Assembly: GCF_046119375.1 (NCBI RefSeq)
Contig: NW_027362765.1
Coordinates: 199,330,001-199,394,000 of the forward strand
Direction: 5' to 3'
DNA: 64,000 bases
Origin: Phyllobates terribilis
Taxonomy: Eukaryota
Part shown: piece after piece, positions 2,722 to 63,427 of the stretch
Layout: each line of letters begins with the position of its first letter
How positions within the stretch are numbered: position 1 is the stretch's first letter
The notes under the pieces: generated by a model
What the model saw: only the letters and a program-made list of their open reading frames with translations
Databases searched by the model: none
What the model was told of the DNA's origin: nothing
Translations under genes and position numbers: made by a program

Positions 2722-2911
2722 TGGCGGTACGCCATTGGTCCTGGGGTAAAATCCCACCATGATCAGTATCTGCGAGGAGTTTGTACGTTCTCCCCGTGTT
2801 TGCGTGGGTTTCCTCCGGGTTCTCCGGTTTCCTCCCACACTCCAAAGATATACTGATAGGGAATGTAGATTGTGAGCCCCGATGGGGACAGCACTGATCA
2901 TGCATGTACTG
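2722..2911 (+). mobile_element. SINE body, split by the LTR element; tail resumes at 7680-7726
   Basis: Same body as 574-842. The tail after 7679 matches the tail of the copy at 43416-43673. Confidence 0.8.
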
Positions 2912-4124
2912 TGACGCGCCCCCTGGGCCAGTGTTGTTAGGGGGATACCCGGAGCCGGATCAGATGGGGGTTGTAGTCTCCGAGTGGCGGTGACCCGGTC
3001 CGTGCCCAGGGTGTCAAGCTCAGTGTGTGGCAGTCCTACAGATGTTGCTGGATGTTCTTTCGTGTCGACTACGCCACCCGTTGATTTGCGGTCAATACGG
3101 CCGCCGCTGCAGCAGGGTCCGCTGAGGCTGGTGGTGTGTGTGCAGCTTCTGGTGGTATAACCCCCAACGGGAGGGGTATAGCCTCAGGGGGTCAGTTGTG
3201 GAGGATGGTGGTGGTGAAGGTGCAGGATGAATCAGCAAGAAGACTCAGAGTCGGGCTGTGCAGTTCAGGGTTTTTACTTACTGCTGTTGTTCTGGTCACT
3301 CCGGCCTTGAGTGACCGCCCGAGCCGTGCTGCGTCCACCAGGTCCTGGACTCGGCCAACCCCCAGGTGATTCTGGAGCGTGGTCCTGAGCTCCCTCTCTG
3401 ACTTGTCCTTCTCTCTGGCCTTCCCCACCAGGGATCCACCTATGTCCGGCTCCCTCGGGCCTCTTGTTGGTAAAACCCTTGTCTCTGGGTTCCCTGACCC
3501 TATTCTTGGTTTGCCTTCCGGGTGGATTTAGTGGGTGGTCATGGCAGATCCTGCCCACGACCTCCGGTCTCTGGCTAAGGATTAGGGCCCTCCACCAGCT
3601 TGGGATCCGGTACCCTTGTGCCAACTCTTCACCCTCTGGTCTAATTTTGGGTTCTTGGAGTTCCCTCTTCTCCCCCTCTGGGTCCTTCTTTTCTCCTCTC
3701 TCTCACTTGGCCTTGGAGCTGGCTGAGCTGCTCTGCTCCTCTGACTCAACTCTGACAGACTGACCAAACCTCTACAAAAGACCCTGTTCTAAGATGGTTC
3801 CCACCTTATATACTCCCTCTATGTGTGAGCTCAGGTGACCAGCACCCAATGAGCTCCTAGCATTACCCAGACTGCTCCCCCTATCTGCCCCTACACTACT
3901 GGGATGTTCCACCCCCCTCCCACTCCAGCCAGGGACAGACACTGTCGTACCTGCACATTTCTCTAGTGGGAGTACCATTGGTCTGTCCCCCGGAAATGGG
4001 ATGTGTGTAGTGCATGCAGCCTACTGAGCTCAGTTCCACACTCCATCCTTACCCGGGAGTGGAATATCACACCTCTGGCTGAGGTGCAATACCCCTGTAG
4101 CAGCCGAATCCTCACGGTGCTACA
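2912..4124 (-). repeat. 3' LTR
   Basis: Direct repeat of 6462-7674 (offset 3550), about 5 substitutions noticed. TATATAA at 3806-3812 and AGTAAA at 3273-3278 on minus. Confidence 0.95.
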
Positions 4125-4135
4125 TTCCCCCCTGG
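4125..4135 (-). other. Polypurine tract
   Basis: CCAGGGGGGAA immediately before the TG of the 3' LTR. Confidence 0.8.
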
Positions 4136-4534: not shown

Positions 4535-6436
4535 TTAACGACGGCGTCCTCCTGCTCCTTCTTTATCTTCAGACCCGTTCGAGTCCTCTTGCTCCTCCTC
4601 ACACCGCAGCTCCTCCTCCGTCAGGCGATGCACATGGAGGGCGTAGGGTCCTTTGGCACATTTGTGCCGGGTGAACGTGACCTCGTCCCCTACGTACAGG
4701 TCACGACCTCTGTGTCCCTCCGGCAGATGGCTTTCTACGTCTCTGCGGGTTACAAAGACGTCGCCGGGGGTATGATGGTCTCTTATGAAGCCCCACCCAT
4801 GCTGCAGGTTGAATTTAATCACAGTCCCGGTGGTACGGGGACCATGAGCTGCACGGGGGTTCCTCCTGGTCCGGCTCTTCTGCCCTGCGCTCTGTTCTTG
4901 CAGCCGCTGCTCTCGGACCCGCCTCTCTCTCCGTTCTCGCTCGAAGTCTGCCAACTGCTGGCGGCAGCACTCCACACGCTCTGCTGCGGCTGCCCGCGTT
5001 TCTTGAGTGAACCCCATGAGATCTCCTCCGGTGGGGTCCCACTCGAACTGCGCCTCTTCCAGCGGGAGCGGGGTTCTCCTGACGGGCTTCGGAACCGGAA
5101 TCAGGGGCTCACCTAGGGGTCTTTCTTTCCGGAGTCGGGGATGGTGAAACTCCGGTGGCCACACAAAGGGCTGGCCATCCGGGCACGTATGCTGGGCGAA
5201 CAGGTCCTCACCCAGGTGCGGTACTTTAGGTGTTATGGGCGCTGTGGTGGTAGCGGCGCCCGGGTTGACCAGGCCTTGCGACCAGGCTTGGGGCACGCTA
5301 AAGGAAAAGGGCACCGTAAGAACGGCGGCGCCCGTGGTTACTCGGCCCTGCGACCAGGCTGGTGGCTCCTCGGAGGTAGGGGGCGCTGTTGGAATGGCGG
5401 CGCCCGGGTGTACTAGGCCTTGCGACCAGGCCGATGGTATTTCCTGCTTCGCCGTGCTCAGGGTCGAGGCGTATGACGTCACAGGGGTCGCGGCCGCGGC
5501 TTCTACTTGAGGCCTAGTCCGGCACGGTGACGATGCAGCGACGGGCATGGCAGGGGGAACTTCGGGCTCTGCGACGGGGAGCTGGGGCAGGCACGCGGTT
5601 TCCCAGCTCGGGGTAGAGACGTCCCCTTTACCTGCCTCCATTCGTTCAGCTCCCTTCTCGGCGCCGTCTCCGGCCTTGAGTCCTCCTGCACCATCCTCAG
5701 AGGCGGTCTGTCTCCTCGTCTCGGGTGGCGTGCTCCGCTGACGGGTTTCGGTCCGCTGAACCATCTCTCGGCTCCACTCCGCCAACGTCTCTCGCTGCAC
5801 CCGGGCCATCCTCCGTGCGAGGCCCTCCAGCGCAGTCTGTGCACACTCCCGGTCTCGGGGGAGCTGTGCCAGGACCTCCACTAGGCCTAGTGGGGTTGTG
5901 GCTTGTAGCAGGCTCCTGACCACTGGGTCGGTGCTGCCTGACTCTCCCTCCATCTCCGGGTAGGCTTTCTCAGGACTCCTCTCCAGACTTCTTGTCTCCG
6001 GGTGCGCTCTCTCCAGACTGCTCCAGGCTGCACCCATCTTTGCTCTCTTGTTCTGTCTCCGCCCACATTGAAGGTGGTCCCGGGGCAACTTTGTGATTGT
6101 CAGTTCCAGGGGCAGTTCTCTCACGCTGATGGACACTTCCAGCATCACAGTCTCTGTTGGTGGGCGCGGTTTCCGCTTTTGGCGCCATTCTTCGACCTGG
6201 CCCACGATGGGAGGTGGCCTCTTGCCACCCTCTGGCACGCCCATAATGGCGTCCGCTCTTCCAAGGCGGGAAATCTTTGGAAATGGCGGGAAAAAGCTGC
6301 AAATGGCGGACAACCGGCGGGAAACGACCTGTGATGGAGTCCGTTGGCGGGGACCCTCCAGAACCGGCGGGAGACTTCTTTTTGAGGTAACGGTGAACTT
6401 TTCTTCAGGCACGCAGTACCCGGTTGTTGCGGGCAC
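4535..6436 (-). CDS. Retroelement ORF (633 codons from GTG; first ATG 6244, strong-context ATG 6037) with a C-terminal cold-shock domain
   Basis: Intact ORF: helical N-terminal part, Pro/Ala-rich repeats, charged coiled-coil, then GTVIKFNLQHGWGFI..DVFV..DLYVGDEVTF..GPYALHV (CSD, about 4622-4834) and an acidic tail. Confidence 0.8.
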   Translation of the reverse strand: MPATTGYCVPEEKFTVTSKRSLPPVLEGPRQRTPSQVVSRRLSAICSFFPPFPKISRLGRADAIMGVPEGGKRPPPIVGQVEEWRQKRKPRPPTETVMLEVSISVRELPLELTITKLPRDHLQCGRRQNKRAKMGAAWSSLERAHPETRSLERSPEKAYPEMEGESGSTDPVVRSLLQATTPLGLVEVLAQLPRDRECAQTALEGLARRMARVQRETLAEWSREMVQRTETRQRSTPPETRRQTASEDGAGGLKAGDGAEKGAERMEAGKGDVSTPSWETACLPQLPVAEPEVPPAMPVAASSPCRTRPQVEAAAATPVTSYASTLSTAKQEIPSAWSQGLVHPGAAIPTAPPTSEEPPAWSQGRVTTGAAVLTVPFSFSVPQAWSQGLVNPGAATTTAPITPKVPHLGEDLFAQHTCPDGQPFVWPPEFHHPRLRKERPLGEPLIPVPKPVRRTPLPLEEAQFEWDPTGGDLMGFTQETRAAAAERVECCRQQLADFERERRERRVREQRLQEQSAGQKSRTRRNPRAAHGPRTTGTVIKFNLQHGWGFIRDHHTPGDVFVTRRDVESHLPEGHRGRDLYVGDEVTFTRHKCAKGPYALHVHRLTEEELRCEEEQEDSNGSEDKEGAGGRRR

Positions 6437-6439
6437 GTT

Positions 6440-6457
6440 ATCCTGCCGACTACGCCA
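6440..6457 (-). other. Primer binding site for tRNA-Ser
   Basis: TGGCGTAGTCGGCAGGAT is an 18-nt complement of the vertebrate tRNA-Ser(AGA/TGA) 3' end including CCA, 4 nt downstream of the 5' LTR. Confidence 0.92.
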
Positions 6458-6461
6458 AAGT

Positions 6462-7674
6462 TGACGCGCCCCCTGGGCCAGTGTTGTTTGGGGGATACCC
6501 GGAGCCGGATCAGATGGGGGTTGTAGTCTCCGAGTGGCGGTGACCCGGTCCGTGCCCAGGGTGTCAAGCTCAGTGTGTGGCAGTCCTACAGATGTTGCTG
6601 GATGTTCTTTAGTGTCGACTACGCCACCCGTTGATTTGCGGTCAATACGGCCGCCGCTGCAGCAGGGTCCGCTGAGGCTGGTGGTGTGTGTGCAGCTTCT
6701 GGTGGTATAACCCCCAACGGGAGGGGTATAGCCTCAGGGGGTCAGTTGTGGAGGATGGTGGTGGTGAAGGTGCAGGATGAATCAGCAAGAAGACTCAGAG
6801 TCGGGCTGTGCAGTTCAGGGTTTTTACTTACTGCTGTTGTTCTGGTCACTCCGGCCTTGAGTGACCGCCCGAGCCGTGCTGCGTCCACCAGGTCCTGGAC
6901 TCGGCCAACCCCCAGGTGATTCTGGAGCGTGGTCCTGAGCTCCCTCTCTGACTTGTCCTTCTCTCTGGCCTTCCCCACCAGGGATCCACCTATGTCCGGC
7001 TCCCTCGGGCCTCTTGTTGGTAAAACCCTTGTCTCTGGGTTCCCTGACCCTATTCTTGGTTTGCCTTCCGGGTGGATTTAGTGGGTGGTCGTGGCAGATC
7101 CTGCCCACGACCTCCGGTCTCTGGCTAAGGATTAGGGCCCTCCACCAGCTTGGGATCCGGTACCCTTGTGCCAACTCTTCACCCTCTGGTCTAATTTTGG
7201 GTTCTTGGAGTTCCCTCTTCTCCCCCTCTGGGTCCTTCTTTTCTCCTCTCTCTCACTTGGCCTTGGAGCTGGCTGAGCTGCTCTGCTCCTCTGACTCAAC
7301 TCTGACAGACTGACCAAACCTCTACAAAAGACCCTGTTCTAAGATGGTTCCCACCTTATATACTCCCTCTATGTGTGAGCTCAGGTGACCAGCACCCAAT
7401 GAGCTCCTAGCATTACCCAGACTGCTCCCCCTATCTGCCCCTACACTACTGGGATGTTCCACCCCCCTCCCACTTCAGCCAGGGACAGACACTGTCGTAC
7501 CTGCACATTTCTCTAGTGGGAGTACCATTGGTCTGTCCCCCGGAAATGGGATGTGTGTAGTGCATGCAGCCTACTGAGCTCAGTTCCACACTCCATCCTT
7601 ACCCGGGAGTGGAATATCACACCTCTGGCTGAGGTGCAATACCCCTGTAGCAGCCGAATCCTCAGGGTGCTACA
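6462..7674 (-). repeat. 5' LTR
   Basis: Direct repeat of 2912-4124, followed on minus by the PBS. Confidence 0.95.
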
Positions 7675-7904
7675 TACTGCACTGTGGAAATTAAAGGTGC
7701 TGTATAAGCAATGCATAATAAATAATATGTCAGTGCAAAGAAGAAGATGCATTAGTTGCCCATAGCAACCAATCAGATTGCAGATTTCATTATAGTGGCT
7801 GTGAACAATAAGGGGTGATAGGGTGCCATGAGCAACAGCTCCCCTTTTCCTTAGCGCCACTTTGCTAAGTGTCCAGCAGCACTGCCCTATGACGAGCCCT
7901 GGTG

Positions 7905-28775: not shown

Positions 28776-29765
28776 GCCTATTTGAATACAAATAGATCTG
28801 ATGTTAGATTTTATACTTAAAAACAGAGGAACAAAAGGGGCAATATCTGAAGTGTATAGAGACCTGCTGCACGCCTTTCTTGGAGGACACCCTATCAAAG
28901 CTAGAAGGAAGTGGGAGACAGACTTGGGAGAGATAAATGACGATAGGTGGGAGTCTATTCTAGAATATATACCCAAGTTATCCATGAGTGAGCCTGGGAG
29001 AATGTCACAGCTGTATGTGATCCATAGGGCATATAGAACCCCTGATATGTTATTTAAAGCAGGGTTGAAGTGTAACTCCGACTGCCCAAGGTGCTCGCAA
29101 TCTCAGGCAGACATACTGCATATGCTTTGGCATTGTCCTAGATTGTCCTCCCTTTGGATCGTAGTGTTGAACCGTATTGGAATGGTGTATAGGTGTATTG
29201 TCACTAGGGACCCACTGACATGTATATTAGGGTACGTTGAGGAAATAAAAACAGACAACATGACCAAAATAGCAATTGCGAGATTATTGTTTATTGCCAG
29301 AAAATTGATTGCAAAATATTGGATTAGAGAGGAGCCCCCGTCCAGACGCGAATTCATTGCCCAAACGAACTATATAATTCAACTTGAAAAAAGTATTTAC
29401 ACCAAGAGGAATAAGCAGGAATACTTCCATAAATTATGGCAGCCATGGTTGGATAGGATTAATTAGAGTACATTTATATATACTACTGTAGAGTAAAACT
29501 CTTGGTAAACTGCATGGCAGAGTGGAGAGGGAAGAAGGAAAGGGAGTAAGGGAAGGAAAGAAAAGGGGTAACGTAGGGAAGGGAAGGAAAGAGGGGGGGG
29601 GAATAAAATAAAAAAAAAAGAGAGAAAGAAAGGTCTCCATGGGGGGGAGGTGGGGTGGTAATGGAAGGGGGGGGAACTTACTGTAATATTGTAAAACGAG
29701 TATTGTCATGTAATATCTGTTCCAAGTTTTGTTATGTTTAATAAAAACTTATCTGATTAAAAAAA
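28776..29765 (+). mobile_element. 5'-truncated L1 LINE (ORF2 C-terminus to 29466, G-rich 3' UTR, poly-A)
   Basis: CPRC..HMLWHC zinc knuckle, KLWQPW end, AATAAA plus A-tail, 17-bp TSD AAGAATAGTAAAGGCCG (28759-28775 and 29766-29782). Confidence 0.92.
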
Positions 29766-34060: not shown

Positions 34061-35677
34061 CACTACCGTTCAAAAGTTTGGGGTAATTTAGAAATTTCAT
34101 TATTTTTGAAAGAAAAGCACATTTTTTTTCAATGAATCTAACATTAAATGAATCAGAAATACACTCTATACATTGTTAATGTGGTAAATGACTATTCTAG
34201 CTGCAAACGTCGTATTTTTATTCCAATATCTACATAGGTGTATAGAGGCCCATTTCCAACAACCATCACTCCAGTGTTTTAATGGTACATTGTGTTTGCT
34301 AACTGTGTAAGAAGGCTAATGGATGTTTAGAAAACCCTAGAAAACCCTTGCACAAGTATGTTAGCCCAGCTGAAAACGGTTTGGCTGATTTGAGAAGCTA
34401 TAAAATTGACCTTCCTTTGAGCTAGTTAAGAATCTGGAGCATTACATTTGTTTGTTCTATGAAACTCTCAAAATGGCCAGAAAAAGAGAACTTTCATGTG
34501 AAACTCGACAGTCTATTCTTGTTCTTAGAAATGAAGGTTAATCCATGCGAGAAATTGCAAGAAACTGAAGATTTCCTGCAACGGTGTGTACTACTCCCTT
34601 CAGAGGAGAGCACAAACAGGCTCTAACCAGAGTAGAAAGAGAAGTGGGAGGCCCCGCTGCACAACTGAGCAACAAGACAAGTACATTAGAGTCTCTAGTT
34701 TGAGAAATCGATGCCTCACAGCTCCTCAACTGGCAGCTTCATTAAATAGTACATGCAAAACGCCAGTGTCAAAGTCTACAGTGAAGAGGCGACTCCGGGA
34801 CGCTGGCGTTCAGGGCAAAGTGGCAAAGAAAAAGCCATATCTGAGACTGGCTAATAAAAGGAAAAGATTAATATGGGCAAAAGAACACAGACATTGGACA
34901 GAGGAAGATTGGAAAAATGTTTTATGGACAGAAGAATCAAAGTTTGAGGTGTTTGGATCACACAGAAAAACATTTGTGAGATGCAGAACAACTGAAAAGA
35001 TGCTGGAAGAGTGCCTGACGCCATCTCTCAAGCATGGTGGAGGTAATGTGATGGTGTGGGGTTTCTTTGGTGCTGATAAAGTGGGAGATTTGTACAAGGT
35101 AAATGGGATTTTGAATAAGGAAGGCTATCACTCAATTTTGCAACGCCATGCCATACCCTGTGGACAGCGCTTGATTGGAGCCAATTTCATCCTACAACAG
35201 GACAATGACCCTAAGCACACCTCCAAATTATGCATGAACTATTTAGGGAAGAAGCAGGCAGCTGGTATTCTATCTGTAATGGAGAGGCCAGCGCAGTCAC
35301 CAGATCTCAACCCCATTGAGCTGTTGTGGGAGCAGCTTGACCATATGGTACGCAAAAAGTGCCCATCAAGCCAATCTAACTTGTGGGAGGGGCTTCAGGA
35401 AGCATGGGGGGAAATTTCTCAAGATTACCTCAGCAAATTAACAGCTAGAATGCCAAAGGTCTGCAATGCTGTAATTGCTGCAAAGGAAGCATTCTTTGAC
35501 GAAAGCAAAATTTGAAGGAGAAAATTATTCTTTCTAATAAAAATCATTATTTCTAACCTTGTCAATGTCTGGACTATATTTTCTAATCATTTTGCAACTC
35601 ATTTGATAAATAAAACTATGAGTTTTCATGGAAAACACAAAATTGTCTGGGTGACCCCAAACTTTTGAATGGTAGTG
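34061..35677 (+). mobile_element. Full-length Tc1-like transposon, DD38E (Intruder-type); transposase pseudogene 34473-35515
   Basis: TIRs CACTACCGTTCAAAAGTTTGGGGT, TA TSD, QDND..NPIE spacing of 38, first catalytic D mutated (WTEE), and a 5' stop plus frameshift. Confidence 0.9.
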
Positions 35678-52304: not shown

Positions 52305-53021
52305 CTAAATGTGGACTCTCTGATGGGCAACAAGGTGGGAGCTGTGATTAAATGTTTTTCCGCATGTAACACAAGCATAAGGCTTCTCTCCTGAATGTGC
52401 CCTCTGATGAATGACCAGATTTGAGCGGTGAGTGAAGCTTTTTCCACAGTCAGTACAGTCATAAGGTCTTTCTCCTGTATGAACCCTCTGGTGGGTCACC
52501 AAGTTGGAGCTGATGCTGAATTTTTTCCCACACTCTCCACAGCTGTAAGGCCTTTCTCCTGTGTGCACCCGCTGGTGGGTCACCGCGTTTGAGCTAGTAC
52601 TGAAGCTCTTCCCGCAATCCATACACATGTAGGGTCTGGACCCAGTGTGAACTCGGAAGTGAGTTACCAAATTGGATTTCTGGGCAAAACTCTTCTGACA
52701 CATAGCGCATGTGTAAGGTTTGTTTTTTTCAATGGCCTGACCTTGAAGGTCACAATCAAAGTTATCTACTTCATTTTTCACTTTGGCTTTTCCCGATGAT
52801 GGCTTTGTTCGACCATTTCTTTGACTACTTAATAGTGGACAACCTTGTGCTTCTTTTGTTTTACCTGAGAGGTTTTGGGTTACATTCTGATCTTTTGTCT
52901 TTTTACTGTCAGACTTAAGATTTGTGGTTCCGTTGGATTTAGTCACTTTGGATGAACTTCTTATCTTCTTTGATTTAGACTTCCCCCAGTTCATTTGGGT
53001 CTCATAATCAGATGCTTCCAT
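52305..53021 (-). CDS. C2H2 zinc-finger protein with 5 fingers (XlCOF/XlCGF-like), 238 aa
   Basis: Five CxxC-x12-HxxxH units with TGERPY/SGEKPY linkers and a Lys-rich N-terminus. Splice acceptor at 53077 with in-frame stops before the ATG. Confidence 0.88.
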
Positions 53022-54217
53022 TTTTTATGACCAGTGGAAATGAGAGATCCAATGTCATCCAGCAAAGATTCCTAAGACTGAAAAACAGGAGACAGAAGAT
53101 AAGAAGCAGTCAACAATACTAATGAGATGAAGTCTATGAAGCTCTGTGCACTGCAGGGCTGTAGTTTCTGTTATAAATGGTGCTCGATCATTACACATCG
53201 GCAGCTGCGACTTTTAACGATATCCATCTTTTAGCATGGGGCACCATTTTAAAAGATGGAATATTCAACACAGATGTGAACACAACCTTAAATGTATTAT
53301 TCCCCCATGTAAAACAGGCCATACAAGCTCTAAAAGAACAAACATTTTACAAATATAATGTATATTTCATAGAAGTGAAATGTCAGAATTTGTTAGGGGG
53401 AATCTAAAAACCGATTTACATTGGCCAATTAACAACAGTTCTTATATTTTATCAGTCCATTGTAAAAGGGCCTTTAGACTCCCCGAACAAATTCTTACCA
53501 TTGACCGATAGGGAATTTACATCATATTTGTAAAATCGTGGTGCAGACATGCCGCCAATCAGCCGACAAGAGAGCAAAAAGCTCGTTCTTCAGTTAATCG
53601 TTGTCGACATCACATTGCTCAGTGATAACAAGGGATGTGCTGCCGAATAGCAGCATGCTGTATGGAGAAGAATGATGATATTAATGATACGCACACTGTT
53701 GCATCGACCATTAAAGAATTTCTGATTAACCTGTATATAGTTGATTGGCGCTTATTAATGGTCAGATATCGACCCGGGTAAATGTGCCATCAGGCTGTGT
53801 TCAAATCATGTTCTATGTATGCAAAGGGAGAGCTCCAGGTGCATGATCTGTATGTGTTGAAAGGGTCACATGAACCAACATTTCCTGACCAAGTAATGGT
53901 TGGTCAGCATTTGTTTTACTGTATAGATTAACATAGCAGACTAAACTGCTCTATTCAGAGCATCCAGTAGGAAAATATAGAGCACTTTTTCTCCATGGCA
54001 CCCCATTGGCGACGTACGCCCTGAGAAAAACTACAGATATTTACCTCTGACATAATGCTCTAATGTGAACAGAACAACGACCTCTCCCGTTCTTACTCTG
54101 AACTGATGGCTCACTCACCAGGTGGGAAGGGGACTCTCAGTCCTCACGCAGGTCCGGTTCTGTATCTGACATTCATGGCTTAACCTACGCTATAAATTGT
54201 TGGGATTAGCAATTCAA

Positions 54218-57795: not shown

Positions 57796-58811
57796 TGACG
57801 TGCCCCCTGGGTCGTGCGTGTAGGGGAATACCCGGAGCCGGGTCTCTGTGTAATGCTGGGGGTTGTAGTCTCCGTGGCAGTGACCCGGTCCCGTGGCTCA
57901 GGGTGGTCAAACCAGTGGCGGATCTGTTTCTTTGGTTTTGTAATGTTTGAATGTCCGACTACGCCACCTGTGGATTGCAGTCACTGAGAACCGCCGCTGC
58001 GGGGCAGACCGCTGAGGCTGATGTTGTGTGCGCAGCAGAGGGTAGTATAACTCCCCACGGGAGGAGTATAGCCTCAGGGCAGCGTCTATAGATGGTGTGG
58101 GTTGTGGTGCGTGGGCGCCGCAGAAATGACTCAGAGTCCGTGCAGTGCAGTTCAGGGTCTTTACTGTTGGTAATGAAGAAGGCCCTGCCGGGAGTACTGG
58201 CTAACATTAGAGGCCTGGTCAGTCTGTGAGCGAACAAGAGTCCCCCTGGCCAGGTGGAGGTGTAGGCCTTCCCGTCTGACTGCACTCTTCCTGGCTACCC
58301 TGCTGTAGTCGTGTAGTAGCCCACGTCCCTGAGTGTACCGTGTGGTGCTCACCCGTATGGCTGGTGACTTGGGGCCTTTGGTTCCTTCTGCTCCTCGATG
58401 GCGGTGCCGTTCCCTTGCGTGTGACTGAGCCTCCGGGCTTTCTATGGCCCCAGGACCAGAAATCCCCTGCCAGGTGGTTTCTGCTGCTGAATGTAGATAT
58501 CCTCACAGCCTCGAACTCCAGTGTCCGGTTCTCTGCGTCTTTCTGCCAGGACGAGCTCTGCTGCTCCAGTCCCTGGTCTTCAGCTCCTGGCTCCTACAGA
58601 GCTCTTTGCTGCTGCTCTGTCCCTTCCTCTGGAACTAGACTCAACTACCTAACCCCGCCCCAGATCCAGTTTATAAAGGGCAGGTCCCTCCCCTCCCTGG
58701 ACTGGGGCAGGAGGTGTGGCATGCAATAATGCTCCTGACCAGGAAAACCCATGCTCGCTCTCAGACATGGTATTTCTACCACTGTGGCTACCAGACCCTT
58801 GGGGTGCCACA
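57796..58811 (-). repeat. 3' LTR, related in U5 to the LTRs of 2912-7674
   Basis: Shared blocks TGACG.GCCCCCTGGG, GGGGGTTGTAGTCTCCG, CGACTACGCCACC, CTGAGGCT..AGCCTCAG, GACTCAGAGTC and CAGTTCAGGG..TTTACT. Confidence 0.88.
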
Positions 58812-59649
58812 TTCCCCCCTAGTAAATTTTAGTACTCCGGGACTAAACACATTTTATGAAAGCATACATAACAGGGTATAAACAATAACACAACAACATA
58901 TGTACAAGAAGTTTAGTTTTTATAGGTCACAGCGCTTCCGTAACCAGGTGTCCATGTCACCCAAGATGTATTTTGAGGGACCCGTCCCAAACCCTCCACG
59001 TAGGCCCTGGGGTGGCTACAGGGCATCGATGATCCTGCGTTGGACCACGTCTTCAGCCACCTCCACGGGTTTTTGTTCTGTGGTCTGGCACAAAAGGACA
59101 CTTAACAGGTGCAACTATTTACAAGGTACAGTTCCGGTTATTCATTGTCCATAACCTGTTAGTCCATAAACCCTGTCGGGTAACTAGAGAAACAGAATTA
59201 GTATTCAGGTAACAAACATGAAACATTTCAACAGTGGCAATATACAGGTATATATATCACATTTAAATTCTCCAGCGAGCGGGCATTTGACCTCTAGTGC
59301 TCCTGGTGGACCTACGTAACACACTATCTGGTGGTGTACTTTCTGGGTCCCCTGTTTGTACCCCTTGTGTAGTGAGCTCGCTAGTGTCTGCACTACAGGT
59401 ATTTGGAGATGTTATGGGCAGACTGGGCAGCTTTCTGCGTACTCTTTGGCTTACCACAGGCACGGCAGGCTCACTACTAGCAGAGGGTTGATTCTCCTGG
59501 GCTGCTGGTATGGAATCTTCTGCCTCCGGGGCCGGTTGCTCTCCCAACACTACTTGCTCTTCTGTAGGCCCTTGAGGGGCTGGCTGGAGAAAGGTTAGGA
59601 CGGGTATCACAATAGCGTTGTTAATTTGTGTCCAGGACCGGGGAAATTC

Positions 59650-62600
59650 TCAGAGTACTATACTGAGCATTTCTTCCCTTTCCTCTGCAGGTTTAGGGCT
59701 ATCTTGGTCTTCATCAGTGCTTTGCAGCTGCTCGGGACACTTCTTCAGGTGGTCTCTGCAGACAGTGGCTGTGGTCTCTCCTCCATCCTTACTGATAACG
59801 CATACTTTCGGATTTTCATGGCTTGATGGCAGTACTGTGTACGGTTCCTTCTCCCACTGGTCATCCAACTTATGGAGCCGCCTCTTCCTCTTCAAGACCT
59901 GCTCTCCAGGTGCCAGAGGAGCAGCGGGAGCATGCTGGTTATAAGTCCTCTCTTGCCTTTCTCTTGCTTGAGACAGACTTCTCTCAACACTCTCCTGCAC
60001 TTTCCTGTACTGCTGCTGCCGTTCTGTATCCCAGTCTGCCTCTGGCGAGGTGTCCTCGGGCGCCAGGACTCCCATATCCAGGTCAATAGGCAGCTTACCA
60101 GGTCTTGCTCTCATTAGGTAAGCCGGGGTGCAGTTGGTGGAATTTACTGGGATGTGGTTATACAAGTCCACCAGATCAGGCAGTTTCTCAGGCCACAGAC
60201 TGCGTTCTTCCAGGGGCAACGTTTTCAGCAAGTCTATCACCACCTGGTTCATCTTCTCGCATAATCCGTTGGTTTGGGGGTGATAGAGCGTTGTCCTTAT
60301 CTTCTTGCAGCCATACAGGTTGCAGAACTCCTGGAAGACCTCCGCTTCGAAGGCTGGACCTTGGTCAGTCAACACTTGCTCGAGATACCCGTGTGGACGG
60401 CAGAAGTGCTGCTGGAAGGCTCTAGCTGCTGTCTGAGCTGTTAAGTCCTTGACAGGGACCACCACCAGGAACCGGGAGTAGTGGTCTAAGATGGTGAGGG
60501 TGTAGACGTACCCGGATCTACTTGGAGCCAGCTTCACATGGTCCAGGGCTACCAGTTCTAGTGGCTGCTTGGTGATGATGGACTGCAGAGGAGTCTTCTG
60601 GCTGGCACGGTCCTTTCTTCTCGGGTTGCACAGGCCGCAGTCTCTGCACCATCTCTCAATGGCCCTTCTCATGCCTACCCAGAAGAACTGTTCACGCAAC
60701 AGGAACTCCAACTTCTTCCATCGAAAGTGCCCTGCCCCGTCGTGGTATGCCTCCAGGACCATAGCCGCATCTCGTCTCAGGACCACTACCTGCCAGGTCA
60801 GCTCATGTGTCCGGGAGTTGACAATTCTCCGGCACAGCTTCCCCTTGTAGAGAAACAGTTTACTCTTCTCCTTCCACATCTGTTTAGTTTCTTCCGGAGC
60901 GTCTGGGTCAAGGCGGGCATCAGCCTGTGTCAGCATCTCTTTTACCAGGTGGACGGCTGGGTCACTGTCTTGCGTCTCTGCCCAGCTGTGGTGGGGTAAG
61001 GGATGGAACGTGGCAGAGTGCCTGTCCCTTACACGGTGGGAACACTGGGTAATCCCACGACAGTGGAACGCAGGGAGTTCAATCTCTTCCAGTTCTTCTG
61101 GATCCTCCCCTCCGTCCGGCAAGTTCGGCATCCTGGACAGGGCGTCTGCGTTGGCATTTGTGCGTCCCGCCCGGTATTTGATGGTGAACTCATAGTTGGA
61201 TAGACGGGCCATCCATCTCTGCTCCAGGGCACCAAGTTTTGCAGTTTCCAGGTGTGTCAACGGGTTGTTGTCCGTGTACACGGTGAACTTGGAAGAGGCA
61301 AGGTAATGTTTAAAGCGCTCTGTCACTGCACATACCACCGCGAGGAACTCTAGCTTGAAGGAGCTGTAATTTTCAGGATTCCTTTCTGTGGGCCGGAGCT
61401 TCCTGCTAGCATAAGCGATTACCCGTTCTCTGCCCTGTTGGATCTGGGACAGCACCGCCCCTAGCCCGATGTTGCTCGCGTCTGTGTGGAGAATAAAAGG
61501 CTGGCCGTAATCAGGGTACGCCTGGATTTCATCCCCCGTGAGGGCCATCTTCAGCTGGCAGAAAGACTCATCCTCCAGCTTGTCCCATTTGAAGGGCGGC
61601 TTCTGGTTTTTGGCCTTCCTGGACTGGCCTATCAGGAGGTCCTGCATAGGGGCTGCCATTTTGATGAACCCGGAGATGAATCTTCGGTAGTGGCCTACCA
61701 ACCCGAGGAACTGCCGCACTTCCTTTATGCTGGAGGGTCTTGGCCAGTCCTTAATCACTGTGATCTTATCAGGGTCTGGAGCTACTCCGTCAGCACTCAC
61801 CACGTGTCCCAGGTACTGTACCTTTGGCTTCAGTATATGACACTTGGAGGGTTTCACCTTTAGGCCGTAGCCTGCCAGGGCGTCAAACACTTCTGCCAGG
61901 TGTCTGATCTTATCAGGGTCTGTAGCTACTCCGTCAGCACTCACCACGTGTCCCAGGTACTGTACCTTTGGCTTCAGTAGATGACACTTGGAGGGTTTCA
62001 CCTTTAGGCCGTAGCCTGCCAGGGCATCAAACACTTCTGCCAGGTGTCTCAGATGGTCCTCGTATGTTTTGGAACACACGATGACATCTTCCAGGTATAG
62101 CAGGACCGTCTCGAAATTCCTGTGCCCCAGGCAGCACTCCATCAACCGCTGGAAGGTCCCTGGTGCGTTGCAGAGCCCAAACGGCATACAGTTGAATTCG
62201 CTGAGACCCATTGGGGTGGTGAACGCGGTCTTCTTCTTGTCGGCCTCTGCTACAGGAACCTGCCAGTACCCGCTAGTAACATCCAAAGTGGAGAAGAAGT
62301 TAGCAGATTTTAATGCAGCTAAAGATTCCTCTATCCTTGGTAACGGGTACGCATCTTTGTGTGTAATACGGTTGACCTTCCTGTAGTCTACACACATTCT
62401 CATGGTGCCATCTTTCTTTTTCACAAGAACTAGTGGAGCTGCCCAGGGGCTACAGCTGTCCCTGATTACCCCAGCCTCCTTCATTTCTCGCAACATTCCC
62501 TTGGCATTCTGATAGTGTGTAGGGGGTACAGGTCGGTATCTTTCCTTTATGGGTGGATGGTCTCCCGTGGGGATGTGATGTTCTACCCCCTTTACTTGCC

Positions 62601-62697
62601 CAAAGTCTAGCGGGTGTTTGCTAAAAACTCTTTCGTACTCCTCAACCACCCGGTAGACTCCCTGTTTGTGGTGTGAGGGAGTGGAGTCGGTGCCCAC
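59650..62697 (-). pseudogene. Gypsy pol (RT, RNase H, integrase); upstream protease-region piece at 62710-63427 and IN tail at 59263-59610
   Basis: SPWAAP, RMCVDYR, MPFGL, YLED (mutated YxDD), DAS, TDNNPL, HHCC zinc finger, LTDQG..E. Stops or frameshifts lie on both sides. Confidence 0.9.
61762..62049. repeat. 144-bp in-frame tandem duplication in RT
   Basis: Two 48-aa units RHLAEVFD..DPDKI, with 3 differences noticed. Confidence 0.92.
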
Positions 62698-63427
62698 ATG
62701 CAGTTTCTGTCACCAGTCCTCCATTTGTTTCTTGGAGCCGTTACCCTCCTCTGGTTGAGATGGAGGCAAGGGTTCCACGGCCTTTCCAGAGTTTTGGTTA
62801 ACGGTGAACAATTTGGCTAAAGTGGCATACCGGGGCAAGTATACTTCTCTTTCCCCAATGTTTAGGATGCAGACGGGTACCCTCCCATGGCGTACATCGA
62901 CCACCCCCCGTGCTGTCAAAATGGTGGGCCTACTGTCTGAGTAGACGGGTTCTACCATGGCTTGGTAGTCCCTTCCTCTTAACCCGATTGCAGTCCGGCA
63001 CCAGATCATCATCTCACTTTTTGGGGGCATGGCGATAGGGAACGGGTCACTCATCCTTACACTACCAATCTCACCACCAGACAGTTCTACCTCTTGCCTT
63101 TTCATCAGGGCTCTGATCTCTTTTTGTAGGACACGCTGCTGGGTGGAGCTGGCGTTCACCGCAACCTGCTGTAATATGAAAATTATCTCTGCAAGACAAT
63201 ATTCAATAAAATTAGTACCCAAGGTTATCTTAGGGTGGCTTTCACGACGGTCAATGTCCACAATAATTAGTCCTTGCGCTGGCAGTTCAACTTTACCAAT
63301 TTTGATGGTCACCTCTTTGAATCCCACCTGCGGTACGGGCTAACCATTGCTGGCGATGATGCTCAAATCGTCATCTGGGTAGCGGGTAATATCCGAGTCA
63401 TTCCAGTACCGCTTAAAAAGCACATAC

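Follow-up and report, generated by a model that had tools for sequence, protein, structure and literature searches.

The locus described here raises the question of why a long terminal repeat (LTR) retrotransposon without polymerase genes should keep a single gene whose product ends in a cold-shock domain (CSD). The element lies in a 64,000-nucleotide stretch of the genome of the poison frog Phyllobates terribilis (assembly GCF_046119375.1, contig NW_027362765.1, positions 199,330,001 to 199,394,000), referred to below as the window. The reading favoured here, with a probability of roughly 55%, is that it is a satellite copied by a helper retrotransposon, and that its sole gene encodes a non-Gag CSD protein that would bind and protect its own RNA until helper Gag packages it. 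The element covers 4,763 bp of the minus strand, with both LTRs present, and its cis signals, among which the roles of the TATA box and of the poly(A)-like word are predicted from sequence, are located as follows.

6462..7674, minus strand: 5' LTR, 1,213 bp, with TGT...TCA ends
7356-7362, minus strand: predicted TATA box in the 5' LTR
6823-6828, minus strand: AGTAAA, putative poly(A)-like signal in the 5' LTR
6440..6457, minus strand: primer-binding site (PBS), 18 nt, complementary to the 3' end of the presumed tRNA-Ser, 4 nt from the LTR, identical in the helper
4125..4133, minus strand: polypurine tract (PPT) AGGGGGGAA, the same as that of the helper
2912..4124, minus strand: 3' LTR, 1,213 bp, with 5 mismatches against the 5' LTR (0.41%)
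7675..7679 and 2907..2911: target-site duplication (TSD) TACTG, 5 bp, on both flanks of the element

With TG...CA LTRs, PBS, PPT and TSD present, and neither reverse transcriptase (RT) nor integrase (IN), the element belongs among the non-autonomous LTR retrotransposons, and the parts that an initial annotation had listed for a complete element (LTRs, PBS, PPT and TSD) were all located. The same annotation held that the frame from 4535 to 6436 is open and free of protease (PR), RT and IN motifs and of a CCHC knuckle, which was borne out by inspection of all six frames of the internal region, none of which contains a CCHC, protease or RT motif. The 0.41% divergence between the LTRs corresponds to an age of ∼0.8 Myr at a substitution rate of 2.5e-9, as used for a dendrobatid genome (bioRxiv 10.1101/2023.11.06.565769). 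The 5-bp TSD is atypical: among copies with both ends found, the duplication measures 4 bp in 30/34 and 5 bp in 1/34, and is absent from 3/34. The element was inserted in the tail of a repeat resembling a short interspersed element, which continues on both sides (2737-2906 and 7680-7730) and has a related copy at 570-840. At two satellite-type loci (L369 and L370) the sequence adjacent to the LTR runs on as a copy of the primer tRNA past the 18-nt PBS, including CCA, and at one of them reaches a TGA anticodon; the pattern of such extended copies has 28 matches genome-wide. These extended copies, with CCA and TGA anticodon, are in line with priming by tRNA-Ser, the presumed primer. No intact tRNA-Ser gene was retrieved in the genome search, and neither Rfam nor ARAGORN returned anything meaningful on the element. 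A second, partial PBS-like word, the complement of GTCGACTACGCCA, is found inside each LTR (6632-6619 and 3082-3069).

The single open reading frame (ORF) and its surroundings are divided as follows, with amino acid (aa) positions counted along the longer, 633-codon frame, and dN/dS denoting the ratio of nonsynonymous to synonymous substitution rates.

6245..7332, minus strand: predicted 5' leader (R-U5-PBS-leader), 1,088 nt, zero ATG against 12.4 expected
4535..6244, minus strand: single ORF, likely 569 aa, the ATG of which has a strong Kozak context; not Gag
5732..5851, minus strand: predicted N-terminal helix, aa 196-235, the one helix predicted with partial confidence within 400 aa of otherwise disordered sequence
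5237..5431, minus strand: linker rich in Pro/Ala/Thr/Ser, with three repeats (AWSQG motif) at a spacing of 72 bp
4832..5044, minus strand: WD.TG.DLMGF motif and long helix, aa 465-535 (helix 481-525), dN/dS 0.11-0.23
4622..4831, minus strand: cold-shock domain, aa 536-605, with RNP1 GWGFI, RNP2 VFVT and a loop of Y-box length, dN/dS 0.07-0.14
4538..4621, minus strand: short C-terminal tail, acidic then basic, under weak constraint (dN/dS 0.43-1.0)

The initial annotation was right that the frame is open, but its length of 633 codons is counted from a GTG right behind the PBS, and the likely start is the ATG at 6244, giving a protein of 569 aa rather than 633. This assignment draws on the ATG-free leader, the kept context of the start and the relaxed state of the codons upstream of it. 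The leader was taken to run from 30 bases past the TATA box to ATG 6244, and in the 28 copies, out of 40 sampled, that allowed both landmarks to be located it contains 65 ATGs against 366 expected, with 487 occurrences of the reverse word CAT; the corresponding figures for ATG in U3 are 89 and 137. The start context ATTATGG is present in 27 of these 28 copies, the DAIM motif at the start is retained in distant subfamilies, and the codons upstream of ATG 6244 have a dN/dS of 0.73. As evidence of translation, these features are indirect.

The domain that the initial annotation had read as a CSD is indeed a true CSD fold, with a five-stranded OB barrel predicted, at the level of both profile and predicted structure. 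The Pfam CSD family (PF00313) matches aa 536-603 with an E-value of 2.8e-8 and 33.9 bits, against a gathering cut-off of 27, and is the sole family match, while phmmer matched the domain to Csp and YB-1 structures. An AlphaFold model of aa 465-611, based on 23 natural sequences, has a pLDDT of 86.5; in it a helix of 45 residues leads into a beta barrel, for which the best Foldseek matches are CspA, CspE and YB-1 (target TM up to 0.90). The ESM Atlas returned only bacterial CSD clusters, all below 0.9, and word-based protein searches gave P0002 as their sole match. Replacement of the RNA-face Trp and His of YB-1 had been noticed at the outset and is seen as K541 and T563; across 15 lineage representatives F550, F561 and an aromatic at 598 (15/15) are kept, as are several arginines of the domain, and the aromatic at 548 is W or Y in 11/15. 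The RNA specificity of the domain probably differs from that of YB-1, to judge from these residues, including in the reading of 5-methylcytosine, which in YB-1 goes through its Trp.

An autonomous partner, which had been supposed from the window alone, exists as a Ty3/gypsy family with LTR ends, PBS and PPT in common with the satellite. Its members have ∼1-kb LTRs and a 5.9-kb interior that encodes a PNMA-like Gag with a CCHC knuckle (the PNMA match lies below the Pfam cut-off), followed by PR, RT, RNase H (RH) and IN; no CSD was found in helper elements. Helper and satellite have in common the start and end of the LTR, its 3' third (∼370 bp, 70-81% identical), the PBS plus ∼60 nt, the PPT and a 4-bp TSD, and little else. 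The satellite is thus likely to be copied by this related helper, mobilisation being deduced from the common cis signals only. Shared variants in helper RT comprise 3 nonsynonymous and 58 synonymous changes (14/15 copies). The domain order PR-RT-RH-IN and the sizes are close to those of Barthez-type Ty3/gypsy elements with a PNMA-like Gag, to which the helper is assigned by size and domains only; Barthez1 measures 7.9 kb, with LTRs of ∼1.1 kb, a Gag of 355 aa and a Pol of 1,394 aa (PMC11117352). PNMA-family loci were tried as a route to the helper and set aside, the top 30 having no listed PBS within 1.5 kb. One partial helper copy lies in the window.

57796..63427, minus strand: partial helper copy, with 3' LTR at 57796-58811 and a pol frame at 59650-62709 that has 83% aa identity to the pol of the helper at L167

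The abundance of the satellite was estimated in the 10.57-Gb genome, in which the best 150 scored CSD matches are all 100% identical. A codon pattern for the RNP1 motif has 15,844 matches (control 3), indicating at least 15,844 element copies, and the junction of LTR end and PBS, which detects satellite and helper together, has 31,864 (control 0). The first 60 consecutive junction sites, 30 of which were classed on their first 1.5 kb only, comprise 40 of CSD type (three internally deleted), 19 autonomous and one other, so that the satellite outnumbers the helper ∼2:1; these proportions extrapolate to ∼21,000 satellite copies. The junction extrapolation and the motif count together give ∼76-100 Mb of satellite DNA, somewhat less where arrays share LTRs. 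Head-to-tail arrays with common LTRs (LTR-INT-LTR-INT-LTR) were seen in both lineages (L063, L064, L069, L260, L262 and L268), and helper and satellite copies also occur inside arrays of 37-bp and ∼110-bp satellite repeats (L159, L160 and L173-L176; 6/40 loci). Among 40 RNP1-motif sites sampled from the start of contig C1, with copies analysed earlier passed over, the ORF is intact in 28, one with a GTG start; gag or pol matches were found in none of 36 testable interiors, and the internal region of the window element could be aligned over its whole length with 16 of 16 other copies. Copies differ from their nearest sampled neighbour at 4-67 of 423 nt, while their LTR pairs are 99.0-100% identical, which points to many source copies. 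The family is one of abundant, recently active, old and coding satellite LTR retrotransposons.

Comparison of natural copies revealed that the CSD and the helix before it are under strong purifying selection. Pairwise dN/dS is 0.07-0.14 in the CSD, at a dS of 0.6 to >2, 0.11-0.23 in the preceding helix, 0.22-0.33 in aa 401-464, 0.28-0.60 in the N-terminal helix region (0.28 for aa 161-232) and 0.4-1.0 in the rest. Since averages over all pairs are not independent, eight disjoint pairs were used as a check, and in these the CSD came to 0.07 and the coil to 0.11, as against 0.5-0.7 for the N-terminus and linker. The neutral decay that would have counted against the initial annotation is accordingly not seen. 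The ratio of nonsynonymous to synonymous variants (N/S), for which the neutral expectation is 2.5-3.2, falls in the CSD from 1.88 for private to 0.21 for shared variants (p 8e-9), and in the preceding helix from 2.17 to 0.50 (p 1e-5; 56/57 copies for both regions). In no two of the 12 broken copies is the break at the same place. Copies that leave descendants thus keep a working CSD, and many copies act as sources. Purging of shared variants, private variants nearer to neutral and the lack of a common break suggest that the protein helps its own copy; in an element that borrows everything else, such a cis pattern is to be expected if the protein favours the RNA from which it was made. Synonymous divergence itself is uneven, dS being ∼4-fold lower in aa 1-160 (∼0.2) than in the CSD (∼0.87) when ORF aa 1-160 and aa 401-605 are compared; the low 5' value suggests constraint at the RNA level, such as a packaging signal, or recombination between subfamilies.

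The same plan recurs beyond the window's own subfamily. Older subfamilies have it with CSDs that are 53-66% identical. A second pol-less lineage, lineage B (L258-L307, e.g. G000:C1:1059878300-1059883000; 506 junction matches), has ∼1,030-bp LTRs unrelated to those of the window element and a 2.6-kb interior. Its PBS is that of the window element, its TSDs mostly measure 4 bp, and in its one ORF a CSD of 40% identity is set between unrelated protein flanks. Here also N/S falls, from 3.43 for private to 0.34 for shared variants (p 6e-10; 23/30 copies). Its candidate helper is a second autonomous family, which has the last LTR bases and the PBS in common with it at 3/4 sites checked, and whose pol is 41-57% identical to that of the first helper over aligned blocks. 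Lineage C (L086, L088, L218-L237 and L244-L254) consists of older CSD elements with a different PBS of tRNA-Ser type, and in some of its short derivatives an ATG immediately precedes the CSD, so that the protein would have ∼100-135 aa and little beyond that domain.

The favoured reading can be set out as a series of steps. Transcription would begin from the U3 TATA box, the genomic RNA would be translated once, from ATG 6244, and the protein would bind the RNA encoding it through the CSD and would probably oligomerise through the helix before it, forming a protective ribonucleoprotein that is then packaged by helper Gag. A coat of this kind, like that of YB-1 or FRGY2, would stabilise or mask the RNA in the germline and allow the satellite to outcompete helper RNA. 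A preference for the encoding RNA is familiar from the ORF1p protein of long interspersed element 1 (LINE-1). That protein has a similar plan, with a disordered N-terminus, a coiled coil and an RNA-binding domain that acts on its own RNA, and differs in having an RRM rather than a CSD and in belonging to an autonomous non-LTR element; no homology is claimed. Host YB-1 has been reported to support the production of HIV, MLV and MMTV through viral RNA (PMC6040738).

Several observations weigh against this reading. Internally deleted derivatives without a full CSD account for 3/40 CSD-type junction sites, two of them with young LTR pairs (L161, 99.6%; L169, 99.1%), so the domain is perhaps not indispensable. 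Private CSD variants, at 1.88, already lie below the neutral range, and the selection sample is small, comprising 57 copies, nearly all from one contig arm, that were picked by intact motif or junction. That the protein matters follows from the selection data, but these do not tell at which step it acts. The replacements at K541 and T563 may make RNA binding weaker or different, and the expression and RNA binding of the 569-aa protein are predictions, as is its role in chaperoning or masking RNA. Contigs of four coded runs, two of which may be RNA, span the element in full, though they do not count as evidence on expression; a run with a second organism code contains it as well and was left aside. 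Finally, a tree of 67 rows and 78 columns, which held no full vertebrate YBX row, neither put the element CSDs within the Y-box group nor identified a donor.

An alternative in which the protein still acts in cis is that it serves counter-defence, shielding element RNA from piRNA/PIWI cleavage or from other host RNA surveillance. This predicts the same pattern of selection, and would suit the very high and recent copy number as well as the abundance of gypsy transcripts in poison-frog ova (PMC6278860); conservation of the CSD, as opposed to the fast evolution of an arms race, makes it unlikely. Somewhat more doubtful is a role as an accessory factor in trans for helper and satellite alike, in a mutualism like that of Cereba and Quinta in wheat, or as an adaptor to helper Gag or integrase. 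Helper and satellite are both young and abundant, the second conserved helix could be an interaction surface, and YB-1 associates with retroviral integrase complexes (PMC6040738). A shared product would carry broken copies along, yet the 12 broken copies have no common break and shared variants are purged.

A further possibility is that the ORF is a highly diverged Gag, of the type seen in TR-GAG elements, with the CSD in place of the CCHC nucleocapsid; its position right after the PBS, where gag would be, and its C-terminal RNA-binding domain are what such a protein would have. The ORF product is not a Gag by any homology detected here: no capsid family was found in the first 400 aa in 23/23 alignment members, hhalign against helper Gag gave a probability of 0.2%, and BLAST found no similarity between the two. 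These 400 aa are predicted to be disordered but for one helix (pLDDT 39.6, a low-confidence model that alone is weak evidence), and in lineage B unrelated flanks surround the same domain. The diverged-Gag reading is thus largely refuted and highly improbable. The initial suggestion that the CSD protein may replace the nucleocapsid finds no support on the same grounds, the helper Gag having a CCHC knuckle of its own. A predicted complex of helper Gag with the 569-aa protein scored 0.00, with no alignments used and the fold of the partner uncertain, and is counted neither for nor against contact between the two. That the CSD is a passenger, or that the frame stays open solely as an escape from nonsense-mediated decay, is scarcely credible, since avoidance of decay would not purge amino-acid changes and, unless an artefact, a CSD dN/dS of 0.07-0.14 at dS 0.6 to >2 with the same signature in two lineages refutes it, even though deleted derivatives exist and the N-terminal part is weakly constrained.

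The CSD was likely captured from a host Y-box mRNA, in keeping with its first description as Y-box-like. A profile of element CSDs scores YBX1/2 highest (52-54 bits), with bacterial Csp at ≤40.5, CARHSP1 at 24, and Lin28 and CSDE1 at ∼18; lineage B aligns to YB-1 gap-free over 69 aa; and the loop after RNP2 has 19-20 aa, as in Y-box proteins, compared with 12-17 in most others. Host YBX genes have an intron in the CSD region (exons at L309, L310 and L315), and the element has none. In the tree described above, a long branch leads to a single clade (99/99) that unites 21/21 element-type CSDs. When 1.84 billion representatives were searched with an HMM, the best single-domain matches were uncharacterised proteins from Phyllobates terribilis, Ranitomeya variabilis, R. 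imitator and Anomaloglossus baeobatrachus; the Phyllobates terribilis matches are not independent, leaving three other dendrobatoid species, in which the domain is known from protein sequences alone. Since repeats are commonly masked, little can be made of the absence from other frogs. A tentative history, put at a little under even odds, is that a Y-box CSD was captured once, in or before the dendrobatoid ancestor, by an element that dropped gag and pol or never had them, and that its descendants radiated onto different helpers and primer tRNAs, coating their own RNA with a private oocyte-masking protein, outcompeting the helper and reaching ∼1% of the genome.

Some CSDs in the genome stand apart from recognisable elements. 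For the relic CSDs L080-minus, L199, L256, L257, L263, L092, L311 and L316, no surrounding LTR or PBS was found; these are counted as element-type by the tree only, L311 lying outside the clade. Three low-copy, intronless relics within 40 kb (L080, L199 and L238; G000:C4:791483657-791520223) keep the RNP2 His and are basal in the element clade, and represent either an old lineage or a domesticated copy. L311/L363 (G000:C3:249519474-249519647) is a single intronless CSD-like frame that keeps KWFN, has no LTR context and falls outside the element clade.

The initial annotation took the CSD, as far as it was aware, not to be a standard domain of LTR elements. As regards capture as such this does not stand, as CSDs are described in 46 bird endogenous retroviruses (ERVs), captured several times, and the authors consider repeated capture possibly adaptive (PMC12287698); novelty is correspondingly lower than had been supposed. 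It does stand in that no report of a CSD-only satellite was found in full-text literature, a search outside which Repbase, Dfam, most subscription papers and bioRxiv supplements fall, any of which may hold an unlabelled entry. The parts covered of four frog transposable-element papers (PMC4131045, PMC6278860, PMC12822217 and bioRxiv 10.1101/2023.11.06.565769) have no mention of cold shock, and those of PMC12287698 contain no selection test or pol-less satellite. Both the bird ERVs and the satellite are LTR retroelements with a CSD captured, probably so in the satellite, from the host, but the former are retroviruses that were found through RT and have the CSD as an addition, its position varying, whereas in the latter the CSD protein is the only gene, in an element that would depend on Ty3/gypsy and in which a single capture would have preceded the radiation.

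Published non-autonomous LTR elements that code for a protein have kept Gag (PMC11302176; PMC13570524). TR-GAG and RLG_Quinta/RLG_Cereba resemble the satellite in their one kept ORF, in LTR motifs, PBS and PPT common with the autonomous partner, and in being long-lived; the ORF of TR-GAG and Quinta is a partner-derived Gag, in contrast to a satellite ORF that is unrelated to the partner's Gag and contains an RNA-binding domain of host type. TRIM, LARD, Cassandra, Helenus and Ajax elements are likewise long-lived and mobilised in trans, with changes of primer tRNA between lineages (PMC10886601; PMC13570524), but elements of TRIM/LARD type are non-coding, whereas the satellite ORF is intact in 28/40 copies and selected. 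YB-1 and YBX2/FRGY2 share with the element protein the CSD fold, RNP1 and RNP2, the 19-20-residue loop after RNP2 and an Ala/Pro-rich region upstream. The element CSD differs from that of Y-box proteins in its identity of ∼33%, in the replaced RNA-face Trp and His, in the lack of introns and in the long helix directly before it; the near-invariant KWFN/VFVH and the long C-terminal domain of alternating basic and acidic stretches are missing.

Non-autonomous LTR elements have been taken to be non-coding or Gag-only, and here a gag-less, pol-less satellite keeps a host-type RNA-binding gene. Selection close to that on an essential gene, in a satellite more numerous than its helper, points to a step of LTR replication at which elements compete, be it RNA stability, masking or hand-over to Gag. 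The thousands of natural copies make cis preference testable by population genetics alone, and provide the best-replicated case for asking why retroelements repeatedly capture CSDs. As regards the gigantism of poison-frog genomes, an estimated ∼76-100 Mb would escape an annotation that looks for Pol homology.

Two observations concern other sequences. A CSDE1/UNR retrocopy that lacks introns, is duplicated in part and has long open frames was found at G000:C1:734436000-734450800 (L096 and L097), the exon-split gene lying at C2:702.79-702.81 Mb. Elsewhere in the window there are a C2H2 zinc-finger array (52305-53024, minus strand), a Tc1-type transposase (34535-35515, plus strand) and a zf-RVT LINE fragment (28786-29466, plus strand).

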